Position numbers and translations under genes: made by a program. Below, piece after piece: positions 8,230 through 52,357 of a stretch of DNA of 64,000 nucleotides. The notes below the pieces were generated by a model. The model was not told the DNA's origin. It did no database searches and worked only from the letters and a program-made list of their open reading frames with translations. Each line of letters starts with the position of its first letter. Within the stretch, counting starts at the first letter, position 1. The DNA is taken from the NCBI GenBank assembly GCA_964494515.1, contig CAZBTA010000001.1, positions 14,408 through 78,407 on the forward strand, in the 5' to 3' direction. Source of the stretch: an uncultured Bryobacter sp. (lineage in GTDB: Bacteria; Acidobacteriota; Terriglobia; Bryobacterales; Bryobacteraceae).

Positions 8230-10376
8230 CTGTTATCGCGAGTACGTGCCACCGTGGTCTGCGCGGCCAGCATTTTGCCCGCCGCCTCCGCCGTCAGTGG
8301 TGGGGCATACAGATAGCCCTGCCCAAAGCCACAACCCAGATTGCGCAGCTCATCGGCTTGCAGCCGCGTCTCAATCCCCTCCGCCACCACATGCAGCCCC
8401 AGGCTGCCCGCCAGCAGAATAATCGCGCGCACGATCTCATAGGCGGCATGATCTTCCACCATCGAGCTGATGAACGAACGATCGATCTTGAGCGTATCGA
8501 ACGGCAGCTTGTGCAGGTAGCTGAGCGATGAGTAGCCGGTGCCGAAGTCATCGATCTTCAACCCCACACCCATCTGTCGCAGCTCGGTCACCAGTTCCAG
8601 GGCCTGCGCCGGGTCCTGCACCAACACGCTCTCGGTCACTTCAAACTGCAGCGTGGCGGGCGGAATCTGCGTCTCGGAGAGAATCTTGCGGATCTCCTCG
8701 AGCAGATGCCGGTCCTGGAACTGCCGCACGCTCAGATTCACGCTGATCTCAAGAGGCTTTGGCTGCGGGAACATCTCCTGCCAGCGCTTTACCCGTTCGC
8801 AAGCCTCACGCACCGCACGGATGCCGATCGGAATGATCAGGCCACTTTCTTCGGCGATCTGGATGAAGTTGCGCGGGGGGATGATGCCCTTCACCGGATG
8901 TCGCCACCGCAGCAGCGCCTCAAAGCCGATGATGCGTTCGGTCTGGAGATCCACCTTGGGCTGGTAGTAAAGCTCAAATTCCCATTGCTCGATGGCCCGC
9001 TTCAGCTCGTTCTCAAACGACATGCGCTCGAGTACGTTCTCGCGCATCTCGCGGTCGAACTGCACGATACGATTGCCGCCATCACTGCGCGCCGAATGCA
9101 GCGCAATCTCGGCATCGCGCCAGATCTCGTCGGCCCGGCGCCGATCCTCGCGCAAGACAAACCCGAGGCTTGTGGACAAGAACAGCTCGCTGCCCTGCAG
9201 CCAGATGCCTTTGGCCATGACTGATTGCAGCCGTTCGGAGATCAGGTATGCCGTTTCGGCGGATTGAATGCCCGGCAGCGCAATCGCAAACTCATCATCA
9301 CTGACGCGCGCCAGCAGCCACTCGCGGCTCGAGCGATCGCCCGCCGTCAGCGAATCGCGCAAGCGCTCGCCGGCCAGGCGCAGCAACTGATTGGCCACGC
9401 TCTGTCCCAATGAATCGCGGATCAGGCCAAAACGATCGATGCCCACCAGAAACAGGGCCAGGCCCATATCCTCGCAATCTTGATGAACGTCTTCGAGCCA
9501 GTCCTCAAACTGAAAGCGATTGGCGAGGCCGGTAACCGGGTCCATCGTTTTCGCCTCGGTGATGTCCGTGTGCGAGCCGCTGATCGCAATGATGTCGCCA
9601 AACTCGTCACGCTCCAGCCGCCCGCGCAGCAGCACCCAGCGCCAGCCCCCGTCACGATGGCGCAGGCGGAACTCGAAGTTGAGTTCCTCTGGCAGCGCGC
9701 GCCAGTCGTTGCCACTCATGGCCGAGCTGAGCCGAGAAAGATCGAGCGGATGAATCAACGTCAGGCATTCATCGAGCGTGCCGCTCACCTCGCTTGCGCT
9801 AAAGCCACACAGATTGCGAAAGTTCTGGCTGAAGTCGATCGTGCGGGTGCGCAGATCGAGCCGCCACAGATCCTGCGCATGAACGGTTTGCTTGTGTTGC
9901 TCGAGCAACAGCTCGGCATGACGCCGGTCTGACGCCATCTGAAAGCCCATTGCCGAATCATGCAGGGCGCGCCGGGCCTTGCCGGCGACGAGATCCCAAT
10001 CCCAGGGAGTGGAAAAGAAGTCCTGCGCCCCAATGCCGAGCGCGTCATAGACATTCTGGCGGTGATACTCAAGGCAGGCAATGAAGATCGGCAAGGGCCG
10101 GTTGCCCTCGGCTTCGAGAAACGCCGTAATGGCGCGCGCCAGATCCCGATGCCAACAATCTGAAAGTAGAACCACCAGGCCGAGCGGTGTGCCCAGTTTG
10201 CGACATTCTTCTGCCACGGCCAGGGCTTCTTCGGCGCTCTGACAGGCAAAAACGGCGTCGTTGAGCTGCGACAGGAAGTCCCGCCAGTCGCTGACTGGCA
10301 GGGCTCTCCCCAGCTCATGGGGAAGGCTAAGCAAGAGTACCGGCATTTCCGGCAGTTCGAATCGGGATCCTTCCAC
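8226..10376 (-). CDS. Signalling protein: REC-like N-terminus, PAS, degenerate GGDEF, EAL (probable c-di-GMP phosphodiesterase)
   Basis: 716 aa. The GGDEF position reads ARVSDDEFAIAL (GG replaced by SD). EAL-domain motifs are intact (FEALLRW, DDFGTGYSSLSYL, KIDRSF, EGIE). Confidence 0.85.
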   Translation of the reverse strand: MEGSRFELPEMPVLLLSLPHELGRALPVSDWRDFLSQLNDAVFACQSAEEALAVAEECRKLGTPLGLVVLLSDCWHRDLARAITAFLEAEGNRPLPIFIACLEYHRQNVYDALGIGAQDFFSTPWDWDLVAGKARRALHDSAMGFQMASDRRHAELLLEQHKQTVHAQDLWRLDLRTRTIDFSQNFRNLCGFSASEVSGTLDECLTLIHPLDLSRLSSAMSGNDWRALPEELNFEFRLRHRDGGWRWVLLRGRLERDEFGDIIAISGSHTDITEAKTMDPVTGLANRFQFEDWLEDVHQDCEDMGLALFLVGIDRFGLIRDSLGQSVANQLLRLAGERLRDSLTAGDRSSREWLLARVSDDEFAIALPGIQSAETAYLISERLQSVMAKGIWLQGSELFLSTSLGFVLREDRRRADEIWRDAEIALHSARSDGGNRIVQFDREMRENVLERMSFENELKRAIEQWEFELYYQPKVDLQTERIIGFEALLRWRHPVKGIIPPRNFIQIAEESGLIIPIGIRAVREACERVKRWQEMFPQPKPLEISVNLSVRQFQDRHLLEEIRKILSETQIPPATLQFEVTESVLVQDPAQALELVTELRQMGVGLKIDDFGTGYSSLSYLHKLPFDTLKIDRSFISSMVEDHAAYEIVRAIILLAGSLGLHVVAEGIETRLQADELRNLGCGFGQGYLYAPPLTAEAAGKMLAAQTTVARTRDNS

Positions 10377-10409
10377 TTCCCTGTCCTCATCGGACAGGTT
10401 GATGATCCT

Positions 10410-12260
10410 TTAGAGAACTACACGTTGATCGCCGACCCGGCGAGTGATTTTCTCGCGATCGAAGTACTCAAGCAGCGGAATCGCGTACTTGCGGGAGACC
10501 GATGTCCAGTCTTTAAACTCCACAACGCCGAAGGTCTGCCCCTTGCGCTGCTTGAGCATCTCCCTCAGGTCACTGAGTGGACTAGAGTGAAACACCAGTT
10601 CCTGGCCTACGCGAACCAGCTTGCCCGCTCGCAGCAACACTGCGAGGACGGCCTTGGCGCGCGAGGTTTCCATGCCGGTCGAACGCAACACCTCATCCAC
10701 CGCTGGCACGGCGAGGCCCGCATCGAGAAAGGCCTTCTCGATCGTTTGCGAGGCGGCATCGTCCGCCCCGGCCAGTTGCACTTTGTGGCTTTCGAGCCGC
10801 AGCAGGTCGCCCTCAGCCTTTACAGCCGGGGCCAGTCGCAGCAATGCGTCCATTACGCCGGCGGGCGCGCCCGCCAGCAGGCCACTGCGCAACGCCTCAC
10901 GCGAAAGACCAGGCTCGAGCGGATGCTCGCGGTGATACTCGCGCAGGCGATCCACCAGTTGTCTGGCGATGGGTTTCAGGTTGGCAGTTGCCACCAGCCA
11001 GTTGCCGATCGTGAGGGCTTCCGCTGGCATGGTGGCCGGCAGAGTTCCAAGCCGGCGCCGGGCATCCACCAGCGCCATGCCCATCGGGCGCTCATTGAGC
11101 AGCGTCAGCAGCCGTTGCGCTTCACTGGCGCTCTGCCACTGGCGCAGGCGCTCGACGGCGCCCTTGCGCCGCATGCGTACGGCATCAGGATGCAGTTCGA
11201 GCACACTGCCGCCGGCGATGGTGATCACCGGTGAGAAGCTGCGCAGGATAAAGCGATCCCCGGGCAGGATCAGCGTCGGCGCTTCCAGCACAACTCGGGC
11301 AAAGGCGGATTGGCCCGGCTCGATTACGCGCCGCTCGTCGAGCACGCGGATCTCGGCCAGCGATTCCATGGTTCCGGTATGAAAATGCACCCGGGCCCGG
11401 TCGCGTATGGCGCGTGCGCTCGAGAGCAACTGGATCTCGGCGTCAAACACGCGCACGGGTTCAAACAGATCGCCTGGCGCGGCCACCAGCCCACGGGTGA
11501 CATCGCTAGCCTCAATGCCGGCAAGATTGACGGCTGTGCGTTGACCGGCAAAGGCTTCCTTTACGGCGGCCCCATGCACCTGCAACCCCCGCACCCGCAC
11601 GCGTCGCCCTGAAGGATACAGTTCGACTTCGCTTTCAACGGCAAGCTTGCCTTCGCGCAAAGTGCCCGTTACGACCGTGCCATGGCCCTTCATTACAAAG
11701 GCGCGATCAATCGGCAGCCGTGGTGGCCGCTGGGTGTCACGGGCGGAAAGACCACTGGCGGCACTTGTAATCGCGGCGAGCAACGCCTCCATGCCAAGGC
11801 CCGTTACGGCGCTTACCGGAATGGCTGGCGCGCCCTCAAGAAAGCTGCCGCGCACAAAATCCTCAAGCTCAAGCCGCACCAGCGTCAGCCATTCTTCGTC
11901 GACAAGATCCGCCTTGGTAATGGCGATCACGCCACGCTCGAGGCCGAGCAACCGGCAGATCTCAAAGTGTTCTCGCGTCTGGGGCTTGATCGCCTCATCG
12001 GCGGCGACCACAAACAGCACAACGTCAATCCCGCTCACTCCGGCCAGCATGTTGCGCACAAAACGCTCATGGCCGGGCACATCGATAAAGGCGATGTTGG
12101 GGCCCTTGGCGGGTTTGAAATTGGCAAACCCGAGGTCGATCGAGATGCCGCGTTCCTTCTCTTCTTTGAGGCGATCGGTGTCGATGCCGGTGAGCGCCTT
12201 GACGAGCGTGGTCTTGCCGTGGTCGATATGCCCAGCGGTGCCGACGATAATGTTCTTCAT
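10410..12260 (-). CDS. selB: Selenocysteine-specific translation elongation factor SelB
   Basis: 616 aa. [46 protein letters not shown] is the G domain. The long C-terminal winged-helix extension ends ...KYAIPLLEYFDREKITRRVGDQRVV, as expected for a SECIS-binding domain. Confidence 0.9.
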   Translation of the reverse strand: MKNIIVGTAGHIDHGKTTLVKALTGIDTDRLKEEKERGISIDLGFANFKPAKGPNIAFIDVPGHERFVRNMLAGVSGIDVVLFVVAADEAIKPQTREHFEICRLLGLERGVIAITKADLVDEEWLTLVRLELEDFVRGSFLEGAPAIPVSAVTGLGMEALLAAITSAASGLSARDTQRPPRLPIDRAFVMKGHGTVVTGTLREGKLAVESEVELYPSGRRVRVRGLQVHGAAVKEAFAGQRTAVNLAGIEASDVTRGLVAAPGDLFEPVRVFDAEIQLLSSARAIRDRARVHFHTGTMESLAEIRVLDERRVIEPGQSAFARVVLEAPTLILPGDRFILRSFSPVITIAGGSVLELHPDAVRMRRKGAVERLRQWQSASEAQRLLTLLNERPMGMALVDARRRLGTLPATMPAEALTIGNWLVATANLKPIARQLVDRLREYHREHPLEPGLSREALRSGLLAGAPAGVMDALLRLAPAVKAEGDLLRLESHKVQLAGADDAASQTIEKAFLDAGLAVPAVDEVLRSTGMETSRAKAVLAVLLRAGKLVRVGQELVFHSSPLSDLREMLKQRKGQTFGVVEFKDWTSVSRKYAIPLLEYFDREKITRRVGDQRVVL

Positions 12261-47619: not shown

Positions 47620-48203
47620 CACGCCTGCTCCTGCTGCTCGCGATGACCCAACTCGTCCATGCCCAGGCGGTCCTCGCCACACCACCATCCGATCCACCCA
47701 CGTGGCAGGATCGCCGCGGCGTCTTCTTCAAACGCCTCCTCGGCCCTCAGGCCGTTATCGAGACCATCCCCGGCACCATCTTCGACACGGCCCGCAACTT
47801 CCCCCACCAGTGGGGGCGCGGCCCCACCGGCATCGCCAGGCGCTTCGGCTCTCAGTACGGCCAGTTCGTCATCGGCGAGGGCATCGAGCTCGGCGTCTCC
47901 GCCTTCCATCGTGAGGACCCCCGTTACACCCGCATGCCCGAGGGCACCGTCGGCCAGCGCATCCGCCACGCCATCCACCGCACCTTCATCGTCCCCGGCG
48001 CCAATGGCGGCAATACGATCGCCCTCGCCCGCATCGCCAATGTCTACGGCAGTTGGGCCATCGCCACCTCATGGAACCCGCCCGACCAGCGCGACCCCGT
48101 CCGCATCCTCCGCAACGGCACCATGGGCATGGGCTTCAAGGTCTGCGGCAATCTCTTCAACGAGTTCTGGCCCGACGTCAAACGCCGCCTACGGCGCAAG
48201 TAA
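47616..48203 (+). CDS. Hypothetical secreted protein (195 aa)
   Basis: The GTG start overlaps the DUF190 stop (GTGTGA). Signal peptide MTRLLLLLAMTQLVHAQA. I recognise no family. Confidence 0.55.
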   Translation: MTRLLLLLAMTQLVHAQAVLATPPSDPPTWQDRRGVFFKRLLGPQAVIETIPGTIFDTARNFPHQWGRGPTGIARRFGSQYGQFVIGEGIELGVSAFHREDPRYTRMPEGTVGQRIRHAIHRTFIVPGANGGNTIALARIANVYGSWAIATSWNPPDQRDPVRILRNGTMGMGFKVCGNLFNEFWPDVKRRLRRK

Positions 48204-49610
48204 CCCCTTCCGGCGCACCACTACAAACACTTCATCGCGATAGATCTCCTCATACTCGCGCTTGAGCAGCTCATCCACATACCGCGCCACCTCCGGCTCC
48301 CGCACGCGCGCCTGCTCGAGCCACTCGCGCTGCCAGGCCCGCGTCACAATCACGTCCGCCTTGCGCCCCGTGTAGTACCCCAGCCGCACATCATCTCTGA
48401 GCCGCCCCTCAAACCCCACCACAAACGCAAACTCCCCCGGCCCCGTGATCGTCGCCTGCGGATACTGCCGCAACACCGCCGCCACCCGCTCATAGCTCTC
48501 CCGCCCCTTACCCTCAAACTGCGACACCACCCCCACCACCACAAGCAACGCCACCGCCACCCTCGGGCGGTATCCATCCCACAACGCCACCACCAACACA
48601 CATGCAAGCACCGGCACCAGATGCAACAGATAATTCGCCAGCTTCAACCCCTCAAACCACCAGAAGAACACCACATGCCACGCCGCAAGCCACACCACCA
48701 ACCCGCGCTTCTGTCGCACCACCACCCACACCAGCCCCGCCCCATACGCCCACACAAACCACTGCGCCCACTCCCCGCCAATACTCTGCAAGTACCGCTT
48801 GCTCACCTCTCGCCCAATCCCCAGCCATGGCTGGTCAAGCACACTGAATCGCCCCTGCCCGCCATACTCACCCGCCAGCCCTGACACATTCCCGCCCAGC
48901 TGCCGCGCGTACATCGCCCAGTCTTGCCCCGCCCACATCGCCCACGGCACACCACACACTACATACGGCGCCACGCGCCACGCCCACCGCTGCCCCAGCC
49001 CGCCCCACCACCACTCCAGCACCACGAGATCCACCGCATACACCAAGCCACACGGATGCGTCAGCCCGCTCAGCGCCACCCCCAGATGCCCCGCCGCCAC
49101 GGCCCACTCTGGCCTGCTCCCGCGCCACCACACATACCCCGCCAGCCCCGCCACGCCCCACATCGCGCACAACGCATCCATCCGCCCATTCGCCACAAAC
49201 GCCGTCAGGTGCAGATCCACCGCCAGCACCACCATCACCGCCGTCGCCATCCGCCAGCTCGCGAGCAGTCGCCACGCCACCAGTCCCCATCCCACCAACA
49301 CCCCCAGCCCGGCTAACACCGATACCGCCCGCATCTCCCCCAGTCCAAATCCCACCAGCCGAAACCACATCCCCTTCACCACCAAATCCACCGGCATCAC
49401 CCAGTAGTAATGCTGCTCCAGCCCTTCCATCCACGTCCCCCGGCTCTCGAGCAACCCCGACCGCAGCCGCCCCTCCTCCGCCAGATGCCGCGCCGCATCC
49501 CCAAACCACGCCTCGTTTGAGATCGGCATCATCACCCACGCCTGCCGCCCTGCCAAAAGCAAAAAAGCCAGCATGGCGATGGCAGGCCACACTAGCTTTT
49601 TCATCTGCAA
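48189..49610 (-). CDS. Polytopic membrane protein, GT-C fold glycosyltransferase-like (GT39/ArnT-like)
   Basis: 473 aa with many Trp/Leu-rich TM segments. After TM1 comes PISNEAWFGDAARHLAEEG, which resembles the DE-x-x-Y-A-x-x-A-R loop of the ArnT/PMT family. A soluble C-terminal domain is present. Confidence 0.45.
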   Translation of the reverse strand: MQMKKLVWPAIAMLAFLLLAGRQAWVMMPISNEAWFGDAARHLAEEGRLRSGLLESRGTWMEGLEQHYYWVMPVDLVVKGMWFRLVGFGLGEMRAVSVLAGLGVLVGWGLVAWRLLASWRMATAVMVVLAVDLHLTAFVANGRMDALCAMWGVAGLAGYVWWRGSRPEWAVAAGHLGVALSGLTHPCGLVYAVDLVVLEWWWGGLGQRWAWRVAPYVVCGVPWAMWAGQDWAMYARQLGGNVSGLAGEYGGQGRFSVLDQPWLGIGREVSKRYLQSIGGEWAQWFVWAYGAGLVWVVVRQKRGLVVWLAAWHVVFFWWFEGLKLANYLLHLVPVLACVLVVALWDGYRPRVAVALLVVVGVVSQFEGKGRESYERVAAVLRQYPQATITGPGEFAFVVGFEGRLRDDVRLGYYTGRKADVIVTRAWQREWLEQARVREPEVARYVDELLKREYEEIYRDEVFVVVRRKGLLAP

Positions 49611-49626: not shown

Positions 49627-49785
49627 CTACTTCTTCTGATTCTTCTTCCAGCCGAGGTAAGCCATAACGCCCAGCCCGGCCCCCATCAGCACCATCGACG
49701 CCGGCTCCGGCACCGGCTCCGGCACATTGTCTCCCGCCAGCATCACCAGCGGTAAAAACAGCGAAAGTCCCAGCAAATTACGCAT
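49627..49785 (-). CDS. 52-aa mini PEP-CTERM protein, copy 1
   Basis: MRNLLGLSLFLPLVMLAGDNVPEPVPEPASMVLMGAGLGVMAYLGWKKNQKK. GGAG lies 8 nt upstream of the ATG at 49785. The track ORF 49627-49848 extends it artificially. Confidence 0.7.
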   Translation of the reverse strand: MRNLLGLSLFLPLVMLAGDNVPEPVPEPASMVLMGAGLGVMAYLGWKKNQKK

Positions 49786-49819: not shown

Positions 49820-49860
49820 AAAAGGCCAGCATGGCGAAGGCAGGCCATGCTGGCTTTTCT
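49820..49860 (-). terminator. Intrinsic (bidirectional-looking) terminator after mini PEP-CTERM copy 2
   Basis: An 11-bp perfect stem GCCAGCATGGC (49825-35) / GCCATGCTGGC (49844-54), flanked by an A-run and a T-run. Confidence 0.7.
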
Positions 49861-49891: not shown

Positions 49892-50050
49892 CTACTTCTT
49901 CTGGTTCTTCTTCCAGCCCAGATAAGCCATGGCGCCAAGCCCGGCTCCCATCAGCACGATCGAGGCTGGCTCCGGCACCGGCTCAATATTGCTATCGAGC
50001 GCCAGCAGCGCCATGGGCATCAGAAACAAGAGTCCAATTTGAGTACGCAT
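49892..50050 (-). CDS. 52-aa mini PEP-CTERM protein, copy 2
   Basis: Too short for the ORF track. The reverse strand encodes MRTQIGLLFLMPMALLALDSNIEPVPEPASIVLMGAGLGAMAYLGWKKNQKK. GGAG lies 8 nt upstream. Confidence 0.7.
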   Translation of the reverse strand: MRTQIGLLFLMPMALLALDSNIEPVPEPASIVLMGAGLGAMAYLGWKKNQKK

Positions 50051-50117: not shown

Positions 50118-51128
50118 CTAGAGCTCCGCCAGTGCCGCCACCAGCGCGCCCTTGGCCGTCGAGTTCAGCGGCGTGCTCGCCATGCGGATCTCGCTCAGCG
50201 GCAGCGGGAATTCCGACTCACGCAGCAGCTTCTCAAACCGGTCGCGGAACCCGCGCGGCATCGCCGTTCCACCCGACAACACCATCGGCACCGGCTTGCC
50301 CATCTTCGGGATGTTGCGCGAATTCGAGAACGCTTCCTTCAGCCCCGACACCACCGCCCGGATCACTTCGTCGTAATAGACGTTGATCACCTGATGCAGC
50401 TTGTCGCTGATCTGGCCACTGATCTGGAAGTCCTCTTCCTTCGCCAGACGAATGCGCGTCGTCAGCTCGCCCGTCACCGTCGACGTCGAGGCGTCGATGT
50501 AGTCGCCCGCCTTGGCCACGCTAAAGCTCACCACCGGCACCGCCAGGTAGCTGAGACACACGTTCACCAGGCCGCCGCCAAAGCTGATGCCCACGCCCGA
50601 GTAATTCGTTTCTTCCAACTCGCTGAACACCACCGCCAGCCCTTCATTGATCGGCGTCGGCTCGCAGTCGAGCTCACGCAGGATCTGCGCGATCGAGGCG
50701 TCATGATAGGTCAGGTTCTCTTCGGCGCCCAGCGGTGCCGCCGGCACGCTGTAGTACACCGGCAGCCCCGGCCGCCGTTCGCCTTCCAGCAGGTTCTCGA
50801 TCAGCTGCTTCAGCATGATCGCGTTCTGCGGCTCGCTCGGGTTCAGCACGCCCCGGTTCATCGGGCGGCGCGATTCCATCTGCAACAGGTCGGCAAACCG
50901 CGAGCTCTCATTGCCCGGCACGATAATTGTCTTCTGCAGGTTGTCGCCCACCACCACATAGGGCACACCTTCCCGCTTCAGGCTCGCCTCGGTCATCTTC
51001 GACCACGGCACCTCAACAAAGGCATTCAGCTGCGTCTTGAATTGAAACTCATCTCCGTGCTGGCTGGCGGCCACAATGCGGCTCGTGCCGACGTCGAGGC
51101 CGATGGCCGGAGTATTGGAAGTTCTCAT
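50118..51128 (-). CDS. Actin-fold ATPase (MamK/ParM/MreB superfamily, closest in feel to MamK/Alp-type)
   Basis: 336 aa. Phosphate-1 is IGLDVGTSRIV. RRPMNRGVL is comparable to MamK RYPLQDGVL. Phosphate-2 is GISFGGGLVNV. The adenosine motif is MVLSGGTAMPRGF. The C-terminus contains NSTAKGALVAA. Confidence 0.7.
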   Translation of the reverse strand: MRTSNTPAIGLDVGTSRIVAASQHGDEFQFKTQLNAFVEVPWSKMTEASLKREGVPYVVVGDNLQKTIIVPGNESSRFADLLQMESRRPMNRGVLNPSEPQNAIMLKQLIENLLEGERRPGLPVYYSVPAAPLGAEENLTYHDASIAQILRELDCEPTPINEGLAVVFSELEETNYSGVGISFGGGLVNVCLSYLAVPVVSFSVAKAGDYIDASTSTVTGELTTRIRLAKEEDFQISGQISDKLHQVINVYYDEVIRAVVSGLKEAFSNSRNIPKMGKPVPMVLSGGTAMPRGFRDRFEKLLRESEFPLPLSEIRMASTPLNSTAKGALVAALAEL

Positions 51129-52357
51129 TTGGTCTCCTCGCGAGAATTGGAATCTGCTTCCGCGCTGGCCGACGCCTTGTTGCCCTCGGGTAGCAACGCG
51201 CTCAGCCGGCGGTATTGACTGCGCAACTGGTTCTTCAACTGCGCTACTGATATCGACTCCTGCTGCGCCCGCTCGCGCAACAGGTCCTCACTGCCTACAA
51301 CACCGTTCCACATCCGGGCGCCCGTAGCGGCAAAGAACGTCCCGTCGTAGTTAAACCCAAACAGATACAGGCTCCCCAGCGGCTGCGCATAGTTGTCCGG
51401 CAGCCCCATGGCTTCAAAGGGAAAATTCCCCGCCCAATCCGTGTGATACCCGATCTGCCAGTTGCTCGGATTGATTGACACCTGCGCATGCGTCACACAG
51501 TTCTGCGCCTTGATGCCATAGCGCGAACGCAACATCCGCGTCAGCATCCGGCCACTGTCCACCTGCGCCTGCGAGATGATCGGCGCCTCGTCTCCCGGCC
51601 GCGTCTGCGTCTCAAACGAGATCGCGAGAAACGAATCATTCAGCCCGATATACGCCCACTGGTCGTCGGCCCACGTCGATTTGCCCGCGTGGTTGGCCGC
51701 GTCCGTCTCGGCCACAATGCGATACACCCGCCCAAAGCGGTCGATCACATAGTGATACGCCTTTTCCTTCTGCACATAGCTCAACAGCGATTGCCCCAGC
51801 AGCTTCAGCCGCCGCAGCTTCTGCTCCTCAAGCTCCTCCAGCGTGCTCTCCGTCGTGTGAAACACAATCCCCGCCGGCTGCCGCGACGGCAATTGCGTCA
51901 GCGTTGAATTCGGCTCTTTCCGGTTCCACACGTAGTATTCCCGCGGACGGTTCGTCGTCGCATACTTCGTCTGCACATGCAGCCCGTTCGACCAGCTCTC
52001 AATCCCGTCCCGCGAATCCACCAGATACACCTTCTCCAGCGGCGCCTCCGGCCGTGCCTTCGCCGCCACCGGCGTCCCAACGCCCTGTGGCAAAACGTCC
52101 GCGTTTGCCGCTCTCGGCGACACACTTTGCGAACGAAATAGCGACATCGTCGGAATCATCAACAGAAATCCAATCGCCAGCCAGAACTTCCCACTCCGCA
52201 ACCACCAATACTGCGGCCGGCCCAGCGCCTTCTCCACCCCACCCACGCGCTTGTCCGTATCTTTAAGAAAACGCAGCTTCGCCACCGGGTCTTCAATCTT
52301 TGAAGCCCGTGCCTCAATCATCGGATTCAGCACGTCACGCGGCTTAAGCGGGTTCAA
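51125..52357 (-). CDS. Membrane-anchored N-acetylmuramoyl-L-alanine amidase (Amidase_2/PGRP fold)
   Basis: 410 aa. It has a cytoplasmic N-terminal tail of about 50 aa, one TM segment (FWLAIGFLLMIPTMSLF), then IVFHTTES, AYHYVIDRFGRVYRIV, ANHAG, FLAISFE and CVTHAQVS, typical of the Amidase_2 fold. The stop overlaps the ATG of the actin-like gene (ATGA; AGGAG 6 nt upstream). Confidence 0.7.
   Translation of the reverse strand: MNPLKPRDVLNPMIEARASKIEDPVAKLRFLKDTDKRVGGVEKALGRPQYWWLRSGKFWLAIGFLLMIPTMSLFRSQSVSPRAANADVLPQGVGTPVAAKARPEAPLEKVYLVDSRDGIESWSNGLHVQTKYATTNRPREYYVWNRKEPNSTLTQLPSRQPAGIVFHTTESTLEELEEQKLRRLKLLGQSLLSYVQKEKAYHYVIDRFGRVYRIVAETDAANHAGKSTWADDQWAYIGLNDSFLAISFETQTRPGDEAPIISQAQVDSGRMLTRMLRSRYGIKAQNCVTHAQVSINPSNWQIGYHTDWAGNFPFEAMGLPDNYAQPLGSLYLFGFNYDGTFFAATGARMWNGVVGSEDLLRERAQQESISVAQLKNQLRSQYRRLSALLPEGNKASASAEADSNSREETK

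Follow-up and report, generated by a model that had tools for sequence, protein, structure and literature searches.

How bacteria control their peptidoglycan hydrolases is a key unsolved question of growth and division, and the solutions known to us (FtsEX-EnvC, NlpD and MreB-guided complexes) all come from work on Proteobacteria and Firmicutes. In FtsEX-EnvC-AmiA/AmiB, FtsEX-PcsB, FtsEX-CwlO and FtsEX-RipC, a cytoplasmic ATPase regulates, across the membrane, a hydrolase located in the periplasm or outside the cell, and in Bacillus subtilis the actin homologue MreBH reportedly directs the hydrolase LytE. Here we describe a two-gene unit in a 64,000-nucleotide (nt) stretch of DNA from an uncultured Bryobacter sp. 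of the Acidobacteriota (assembly GCA_964494515.1, contig CAZBTA010000001.1, positions 14,408 to 78,407; this whole stretch is referred to as the window), in which the gene for a bitopic Amidase_2 protein of 410 amino acids (aa) is followed, with a short overlap, by that for an actin-fold ATPase of 336 aa that belongs to the Volactin family.

The unit differs from the FtsEX systems in that these combine an ABC-transporter ATPase with a polytopic partner and Amidase_3 amidases, whereas here an actin-fold ATPase is encoded with a single-pass Amidase_2 protein. It resembles MreB-RodZ in that RodZ is also bitopic and binds MreB with its cytoplasmic domain (structure 2wus is among the fold matches of the ATPase), and it would share with both MreB-RodZ and MreBH-LytE the principle that an actin homologue governs the site of peptidoglycan synthesis or cutting. 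Unlike in those systems, however, the putative hydrolase itself has a cytoplasmic handle, the ATPase scores far below the cut-off of the MreB model (see below), and the partner is a membrane-anchored Amidase_2 protein, LytE being a secreted NlpC/P60 endopeptidase. The FtsA-FtsN couple is alike in architecture, as it consists of a cytoplasmic actin-fold protein and a partner with an N-terminal tail, one transmembrane helix and a periplasmic peptidoglycan-directed domain; the FtsA-FtsN(1-29) complex (7q6i) is among the fold matches of the ATPase, and a bitopic SPOR protein is encoded in the same operon in Blastocatellia-type loci. In contrast to FtsA-FtsN, the window ATPase is not an FtsA and lacks a C-terminal membrane helix, the periplasmic domain is of the amidase type and not SPOR, and the genes of the two proteins form an obligate pair.

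Volactin received its name in 2024 in Haloferax volcanii (HVO_2015, VolA), where it forms dynamic filaments in vivo (PMC10869688). These filaments span the cytoplasm and contact the membrane by their tips only, with membrane factors and binding partners unknown, while volactin affects the rod-to-disk transition and cell shape and its dynamics have been likened to those of ParM (PMC10869688). The window ATPase belongs to the same family (PF25216), and a tblastn search revealed haloarchaeal homologues (on replicons of Haloarcula, Natrinema and Halogeometricum) that share 35-37% identity with it across 97-98% of its length, with E values between 3e-67 and 2e-63. Unlike in H. volcanii, the host here is a bacterium with peptidoglycan, and the ATPase gene is fixed beside a gene for a bitopic Amidase_2 protein; the haloarchaeal envelope lacks peptidoglycan, so that such a partner would have no obvious role there. 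The pair thereby gives a bacterial context to a family defined in a haloarchaeon. Volactin, Amidase_2 and the guidance of wall enzymes by actin homologues are already known; what appears to be new, judging from the literature searched, is a bacterial Volactin system, the obligate pairing of genes for an actin-fold ATPase and a single-pass amidase, and a candidate membrane receptor for volactin-type filaments. A literature search, with most subscription journals outside its reach, returned neither a Volactin-amidase pair nor a studied bacterial Volactin member, in agreement with a preliminary description of this DNA, made from its letters and open reading frames (ORFs), whose author knew of no two-gene unit of an actin-like protein and a cell-wall amidase.

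Both elements that this description had proposed for translational coupling, an ATGA stop/start overlap and an AGGAG placed for re-initiation, can be read directly from the sequence, with the AGGAG lying within the last amidase codons (E-E-T-K-stop) and 5 nt before the downstream ATG (Table 1). The actin-like ORF starts with this ATG and the amidase ORF with a TTG, for which a GTG at +24 and an ATG at +36 are alternatives; homologues of 75-95% identity could be aligned from residue 1 of the listed TTG start. The amidase gene product has the layout earlier assigned to it, with a cytoplasmic tail, one transmembrane helix and an Amidase_2 domain, and the ATPase motifs quoted at the time are located at residue 9 (IGLDVGTSR), residue 180 (GISFGGGLVNV) and residue 284 (LSGGTAMPRGF). 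Simple scans revealed no sigma-70 promoter upstream of the amidase gene, and no terminator downstream of the ATPase gene as far as the first PEP-CTERM gene, such scans being uninformative for Acidobacteria.

When one genome per GTDB species was scanned, the actin-like gene had at least 590 relatives, the best 80 of which (Bryobacterales, Solibacteraceae or Terriglobia metagenome-assembled genomes (MAGs) at 55-89% identity) made up the neighbourhood set and, together with three metagenomic/MAG places, gave 83 Bryobacterales loci. An orthologous amidase gene was found immediately upstream and on the same strand in 82 of the 82 Bryobacterales loci with upstream sequence, the remaining one being located at a contig edge. 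Because adjacency and strand are kept in every locus with room for them, chance adjacency is excluded. At the 82 junctions, the two genes overlap by 4, 8, 11 or 14 nt in 51 cases (4 nt in 22 loci, 11 nt in 21 and 14 nt in 6) and are separated by a gap of 0-7 nt in 14 more, and most of the 82 carry a GGAG-like element.

The association extends well beyond this order. A metagenome scan seeded with divergent members yielded 80 loci at ~40-45% identity, including Blastocatellia, in which the amidase gene is adjacent and on the same strand in 70 (66 upstream and 4 downstream), while in the other 10 the sequence of one flank is missing. Among individual distant members, an Amidase_2 gene precedes the Volactin gene with a 4-nt overlap at P0241 (locus L084; 52% identical) and is followed by Volactin plus a second Volactin gene at P0254 (L253; 45%), whereas the order is SPOR, Amidase_2, Volactin at P0244 (L087; 43%) and Volactin, Volactin, Amidase_2 at P0243 (L086; 44%), the last of which indicates that the association survives a changed gene order. 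The amidases of these distant pairs are orthologues, tail motif and H305/D307 segment (see below) included. As named members place the P0244 clade in the Blastocatellia/Pyrinomonadaceae, the module spans at least two Acidobacteriota classes. Reverse look-ups from three amidases revealed a Volactin gene downstream every time, one of them in the cultured type strain Bryobacter aggregatus MPL3. The earlier suggestion of a dedicated unit is thus borne out by co-conservation in 82/82 Bryobacterales and 70/70 informative metagenomic loci, with which the reverse look-ups agree. Furthermore, the amidase-linked ATPases cluster apart from viral, gas-vesicle-linked and other members in a neighbour-joining tree without support values, and the identities of both proteins to those of the window co-vary (Spearman 0.65, 144 pairs). 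Pairing of the amidase with other Volactin subfamilies was not seen.

In some lineages, two Volactin paralogues accompany one amidase, either in tandem (L086:3041-6598) or with the second Volactin divergent (L253:89-3123), which hints at heteropolymers or regulator/polymer pairs.

The ATPase scored 259.3 bits with the Pfam Volactin model, above the gathering cut-off of 35, and is a full-length member, with residues 8-332 matching positions 2-321 of the 321-position profile. In comparison, it scored 28.6 bits against a cut-off of 400 with the MamK model NF040964 and 16.3 bits against a cut-off of 365.75 with the MreB model TIGR00904, and it matched none of the Pfam models MreB_Mbl, FtsA and ParM at E<=0.1 and no PDB sequence at E<=1 in a phmmer search. 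The preliminary description had likened this protein to MamK/Alp/ParM-type filaments as opposed to MreB or FtsA; its setting apart from MreB and FtsA stands, but the MamK/ParM label has to give way to Volactin. The predicted structure (AlphaFold; mean predicted local distance difference test (pLDDT) 92.4, predicted template modelling score 0.90) is closest in fold to the filament formers MreB, BeeR and MamK (template modelling (TM) scores 0.73/0.75), with eukaryotic actin and FtsA also among the best matches, those to FtsA being weaker (TM score 0.57-0.61, root-mean-square deviation (rmsd) 8-12 Å). Neither sugar kinases nor Hsp70 occur among the 50 fold matches listed for the model, and these best folds together with the full-length Volactin match place the ATPase outside the sugar-kinase, Hsp70 and EutJ clades.

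Nucleotide-binding residues D12, G14, T15, E162, G184, G186, D209, D212, G286 and G287 show a conservation of 90% or more in amidase-linked and viral members alike, while 8 positions (L34, T46, A144, N175, G185, R225, K243 and L284) are subfamily-specific in a comparison of 158 amidase-linked with 80 viral members. Both sequence and model indicate that the chain starts 8 residues before strand 1 and ends inside the last core helix, and that it has no amphipathic N- or C-terminal helix for membrane binding; a membrane partner would therefore be needed. By analogy with its characterised relative and with its filament-forming fold matches, the ATPase may polymerise into filaments.

In public annotation, "cell division protein FtsA" and "FtsA domain-containing protein" occur as names of some Volactin members (P0450, P0469, P0470 and P0475; NC_014735.1 240434-241402). 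As these are not FtsA by family models, the name is likely a propagated misannotation.

A candidate for the membrane partner is found in the cytoplasmic tail of the amidase. Across 65 sequences of 40-95% identity, residues A18, I21, P24, L28 and L31 never vary, and A18, P24 and L28 are still invariant in the amidases of the distant pairs L084, L086 and L087, whose tails are otherwise longer. The 3-4-residue spacing of these positions is that expected of a one-sided hydrophobic stripe, and the model is confident here (pLDDT ~89-90 over residues 11-40), with homologues being alignable from residues 1-17 onward. The tail is K/R-rich, which predicts an N-in orientation by the positive-inside rule. 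Given the invariance of these residues, the tail is, by its sequence, more than a mere anchor. The motif is what a binding site for a cytoplasmic partner would be expected to look like, and we propose the tail as a putative docking site for the ATPase. A possible mode of contact is offered by ParM-ParR, where a short conserved helix with a hydrophobic stripe binds an actin-like polymer and where ParM filament ends are said to be captured by an amphipathic ParR helix. Such helix capture, taken as a model, fits the tip-anchored archaeal volactin. Unlike ParM-ParR, the pair described here comes with no DNA-binding adaptor or centromere, and the parR/parC and mamJ partners of ParM and MamK are not among the window neighbours (amidase, PEP-CTERM mini-genes).

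The predicted transmembrane segment that follows the tail is the highest Kyte-Doolittle window of the protein and is modelled as a helix over residues 56-66, with equivalent hydrophobic segments in L084, L086 and L087. In the model of the amidase (pLDDT 84.9), a low-confidence or disordered linker (residues 69-94) leads from this segment to a confident globular part (~105-390), in which the Amidase_2 core (159-293; PF01510, 55.5 bits against a cut-off of 26) is extended by an N-terminal beta extension (with an SNGL motif) and by C-terminal helices. The protein has 4118 homologues at E<=1e-5. Its best fold matches are AmpD, AmpDh2 and AmiD, with T7 lysozyme matching too, and a profile search of PDB placed the domain closest to envelope Amidase_2 enzymes (E 1.3e-7).

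Within the same 65 sequences, the invariant residues of the domain include S123-N124-G125-L126, H167, T168, E170, Y201, D206-G209, H223 and E249, and further T289-S294, N296, H305, T306, D307 and W308, of which H167, Y201, E249 and H290 also remain constant in more distant pairs (down to ~34-40% identity). H167 lies in IVFHTTES and H290 in VTHAQVS. HMMER alignments set H290 opposite the His of AmiD (2bh7; VVAHADI) and AmpDh3 (4bxd; VVGHSDI), which we take to be the second Zn ligand, so that H290 would be a Zn-binding position, and set E249 opposite the catalytic Glu of AmiD (IGIELEN). Y201, in AYHYVIDRFG, presumably corresponds to Y46 of T7 lysozyme. The domain thus shares with AmiD, AmpDh2 and AmpDh3 the first two Zn-binding His, the catalytic Glu and the HAG-S-W substrate motif. 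In contrast, those proteobacterial enzymes are lipoproteins without a cytoplasmic tail and with a canonical third-ligand Asp, while the window family adds the N-terminal beta extension, a remodelled G-x-H-T-D-W segment and the C-terminal helices.

Starting from what was observed (gene structure, families, co-conservation, tail motif and most catalytic residues), we propose, with a probability of roughly 0.55, that volactin-type polymers or oligomers engage the amidase tail and in this way position, cluster or license the amidase in the periplasm, septal splitting being the most likely process. The amidase would be anchored in the inner membrane with its Amidase_2 domain in the periplasm and its helical tail of ~56 residues in the cytoplasm, the ATPase would be soluble and without a membrane-targeting sequence of its own, and both proteins would be made together from one transcript through the stop/start overlap and the internal Shine-Dalgarno element. 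The ATPase would then assemble ATP-dependent polymers that bind the hydrophobic stripe A18-I21-P24-L28-L31 and so become tethered to the membrane, and polymer contact would decide where, and possibly when, the periplasmic domain cleaves peptide stems off peptidoglycan.

The proposed process draws on the Blastocatellia-type loci, in 31 of which a SPOR gene is located directly upstream of the amidase gene (confirmed by Pfam in three of the 31, E 3e-15 to 7e-19), yielding a SPOR-amidase-volactin unit into whose operon the bitopic SPOR-domain protein would have been recruited in Blastocatellia. SPOR domains bind glycan strands that amidases have stripped of peptides at the septum. With such a protein in the operon, septal splitting and daughter-cell separation would be the most likely process. 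The SPOR protein of L087 consists of an N-terminal zinc ribbon (CPKC...CARC), a transmembrane helix (177-195) and a C-terminal SPOR domain; its ribbon match is sub-threshold (19 bits against 30), which makes it a weak hint of a link between Zn ribbons and Volactin. In one Bryobacteraceae MAG (L001:112-5794 and 8792-10999), the pair is located ~3 kb from mreB-mreC-mreD-pbp2-rodA on the opposite strand, a proximity that is not general. Since MreB is encoded separately at this locus, the volactin-like protein appears to be an additional system and not an MreB replacement.

The occurrence of the pair in an abundant and poorly studied soil phylum suggests a simpler, direct link from cytoskeleton to hydrolase. 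The mechanism is testable, as the pair is small, is carried by the cultured B. aggregatus MPL3 and offers its 17-residue tail motif as a mutational target. More tentatively, the pair might constitute a new cytoskeletal system across Acidobacteriota, in which dynamic volactin-type filaments would be captured by the amidase tail (with the Zn-ribbon/SPOR protein joining in Blastocatellia) and polymer dynamics and ATP hydrolysis would directly dictate the site and the timing of wall splitting. If true, such a system would constitute a functional alternative to FtsEX-EnvC-Ami activation and provide the first identified membrane receptor for any volactin-family filament, and with it a model for archaeal tip attachment.

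A number of observations count against tail-mediated control of an active amidase. The canonical third Zn ligand (an Asp or Cys 8-10 residues past the second His) and the catalytic Lys could not be aligned in the amidase: the Pfam match follows the profile no further than position 122 of 131, the PDB profile alignments end at or just after H290, S298 (8 residues past H290) is poorly conserved, and a single-sequence alignment sets Q301 opposite the AmpDh3 Asp. The Zn ligands whose lack would have told against the preliminary description are therefore present in part, with two Zn-binding His and the catalytic Glu invariant and no third ligand alignable at its canonical place. The invariant remodelled segment N296...G303-x-H305-T306-D307-W308 holds a candidate for this ligand, as H305 or D307 (15-17 residues past H290) may complete the metal site. 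With neither the third ligand nor the Lys alignable at its canonical position, catalysis is probable rather than certain, and the domain could be a binder rather than an enzyme. In addition, the transmembrane segment is just moderately hydrophobic (1.55), the related member P0246 (L088) has no amidase nearby (on a contig that shows fragmented genes), and in Blastocatellia-type loci the amidase and actin-like genes are 100-500 nt apart, so that translational coupling is not universal. Polymerisation, the contact between tail and ATPase, and amidase activity are all points that we infer, and the septal role is drawn from a SPOR neighbour in one class and from one locus near mreBCD-pbp2-rodA.

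The altered metal site also leads to the best surviving alternative, which we consider doubtful, namely that the amidase binds peptidoglycan without cutting it, in the manner of non-catalytic PGRPs or of RodZ/MamJ-type adaptors, and as an anchor or sensor ties the filaments to membrane and wall or reports the state of the wall to them. Control would then run in the opposite direction, and the main job of the filaments would lie elsewhere (shape, DNA or cargo positioning). An S298 at +8 from H290 is indeed what non-catalytic PGRPs have, and Foldseek also matched the non-catalytic PGRP-SA, PGRP-SD and PGRP-LC, although the nearest relatives by both sequence and fold are the active enzymes AmiD, AmpDh2, AmpDh3 and AmpD. 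Other Volactin subfamilies do occur in non-wall settings (a gas-vesicle cluster, coiled-coil/AAA neighbourhoods, HU and Zn-ribbon fusions, phages), and the filament tips of H. volcanii volactin need an unknown membrane anchor (PMC10869688). The invariant H305 and D307 could however supply the missing ligand, and the SPOR neighbour fits the production of denuded glycans. Moreover, non-catalytic PGRPs generally lose catalytic-site residues such as H167, Y201, E249 and H290, the conservation of which down to ~34-40% identity therefore argues against a mere anchor.

It is unlikely that the ATPase is non-filamentous and, as a monomer or an oligomer, works on the amidase tail like a switch driven by ATP, sending a signal across the membrane that activates the hydrolase, like FtsEX-EnvC-amidase or FtsA on FtsN. 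Such a switch would be consistent with the conserved ATP-binding and hydrolysis residues, with co-translation, which suggests a stoichiometric complex, and with the FtsA likeness conveyed by 7q6i among the fold matches and by the PGAP name "cell division protein FtsA" of some members. The top folds are nonetheless filament-forming (TM score up to 0.73-0.75) and FtsA fits worse, and one transmembrane helix followed by a ~30-residue disordered linker would be a poor conduit for conformational signalling. In addition, the characterised family member polymerises in vivo (PMC10869688).

Volactin-family proteins of 30-36% identity to the window ATPase are encoded in 511 viral-contig stretches of IMG/VR and in two huge uncultured phage genomes of 485 and 595 kb (LR745208.1 337417-338382; LR756511.1 548798-549796). 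Even so, and although the amidase domain matches PHROGs families (generic endolysin/amidase families only) and flanking genes vary between lineages, it is most improbable that the pair is a mobile phage-derived cassette for lysis or defence, made up of an endolysin and a phage actin-like protein, as the viral relatives are this distant and have this amidase in 0/80 loci (L091-L170, from the 511 stretches), the ATPase has no PHROGs match, relatives of the actin-like gene occur in at least 590 species-level genomes with pair divergence tracking lineage, the window holds chromosomal housekeeping genes (metK, trigger factor, RND pump), and the DUF1800/DUF1501 genes upstream are shared with close relatives including B. 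aggregatus. A reading as a defence system was dropped, since PADLOC matched neither the amidase nor the ATPase, nor a 473-aa membrane protein encoded downstream.

Table 1. Coordinates of the amidase-Volactin pair, its parts and its neighbours (window positions, unless a locus is named)
Feature	Position	Strand	Basis
Amidase_2 bitopic protein gene, 410 aa	51125..52357	minus	ORF and Pfam Amidase_2, E=9.6e-15
Actin-fold ATPase gene, Volactin family PF25216, 336 aa	50118..51128	minus	Pfam Volactin, E=7.8e-77
Coupling junction: AGGAG 51134-51138, 5-nt spacer, ATGA stop/start overlap 51125-51128	51125..51138	minus	Read from sequence (plus strand CTCCT at 51134-51138 and TCAT at 51125-51128)
Amidase tail, N-terminal and cytoplasmic (residues 1-56, with helices predicted at 6-20 and 24-45)	52190..52357	minus	K/R-rich, positive-inside rule, model
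Conserved tail motif, residues 16-32, consensus RAxxIxDPVxRLRFL	52262..52312	minus	Invariant alignment columns; putative docking role
Amidase single transmembrane segment, residues 57-76, KFWLAIGFLLMIPTMSLFRS	52130..52189	minus	Top hydropathy window, 1.55
Amidase periplasmic globular domain, residues 105-390	51188..52045	minus	pLDDT 87-98 over most of region
Pfam Amidase_2 match, residues 159-293; includes H167, H290 and E249	51479..51883	minus	Profile positions 3-122 of 131
Bitopic SPOR-domain protein genes	L087:1208-2305; L173:1980-3239; L190:599-1804; 28 further among L172-L222		
Mini PEP-CTERM ORFs, 52 aa each	49892-50050 and 49627-49785 (second listed ORF extends to 49848)	minus	Signal peptide and PEP-CTERM signal
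Trp-rich polytopic membrane protein, 473 aa, after the PEP-CTERM mini-genes	48189-49610	minus	ORF

Downstream of the pair and on the same strand, the two PEP-CTERM mini-ORFs and the membrane protein gene are present as first described. The mini-ORFs encode tandem paralogous proteins (MRTQIGLL...PVPEPASIVLMGAGLGAMAYLGWKKNQKK and MRNLLGLS...PVPEPASMVLMGAGLGVMAYLGWKKNQKK), in which the sorting signal almost directly follows the signal peptide, so that hardly any mature domain would be left after processing. An 11-bp GC-rich terminator-like hairpin (49825-49854) lies between the two and also overlaps the start of the second ORF in its longer listed form. The 473-aa protein, earlier labelled GT-C-like, matched no Pfam, NCBIfam or PADLOC family (E<=0.1 or 0.01), no family match at E<=0.1 supporting this label, and the exosortase models likewise remained unmatched. 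A tblastn search (E<=1e-5) of the 83 related loci, which took in 8 kb of downstream sequence in relatives of 85-89% identity, yielded no homologue of this protein and none of the mini-genes, the latter search having low power for 52-aa queries. Clustering of the flanking ORFs showed that a third gene recurs in at most 14/83 loci, and the pair is thus self-sufficient. With the 473-aa protein having homologues in 0/83 loci and no third gene being conserved, the idea that the pair belongs to a larger envelope-remodelling module together with the PEP-CTERM and membrane protein genes is not upheld. In B. aggregatus, the pair is followed by AhpC/GuaA instead. Upstream, a divergently transcribed DUF1800/DUF1501 pair is common to close relatives only, B. 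aggregatus included.

Elsewhere in the Volactin family, a fusion (Rosetta-stone) search of long representatives never found a fusion to Amidase_2. The fusions that do occur (P0250, P0251, P0245, P0242 and P0259) combine Volactin with an N-terminal MJ0042-type Zn_ribbon_4 or an HU DNA-binding domain, or consist of tandem Volactin. Next to the gene for the Zn-ribbon fusion P0250 (L251) are a second Volactin gene and genes for coiled-coil proteins and for an AAA ATPase. Finally, a Volactin gene of 41% identity (L089:6001-7044; JBARPC010000005.1, labelled as a Minisyncoccales MAG) is located inside a gas-vesicle cluster with genes for GvpL/F, GvpG, GvpO, GvpK, GvpA, a weak GvpH match, and AAA_5 and CDC48-type AAA ATPases, a setting that suggests another dedicated role for this actin family.

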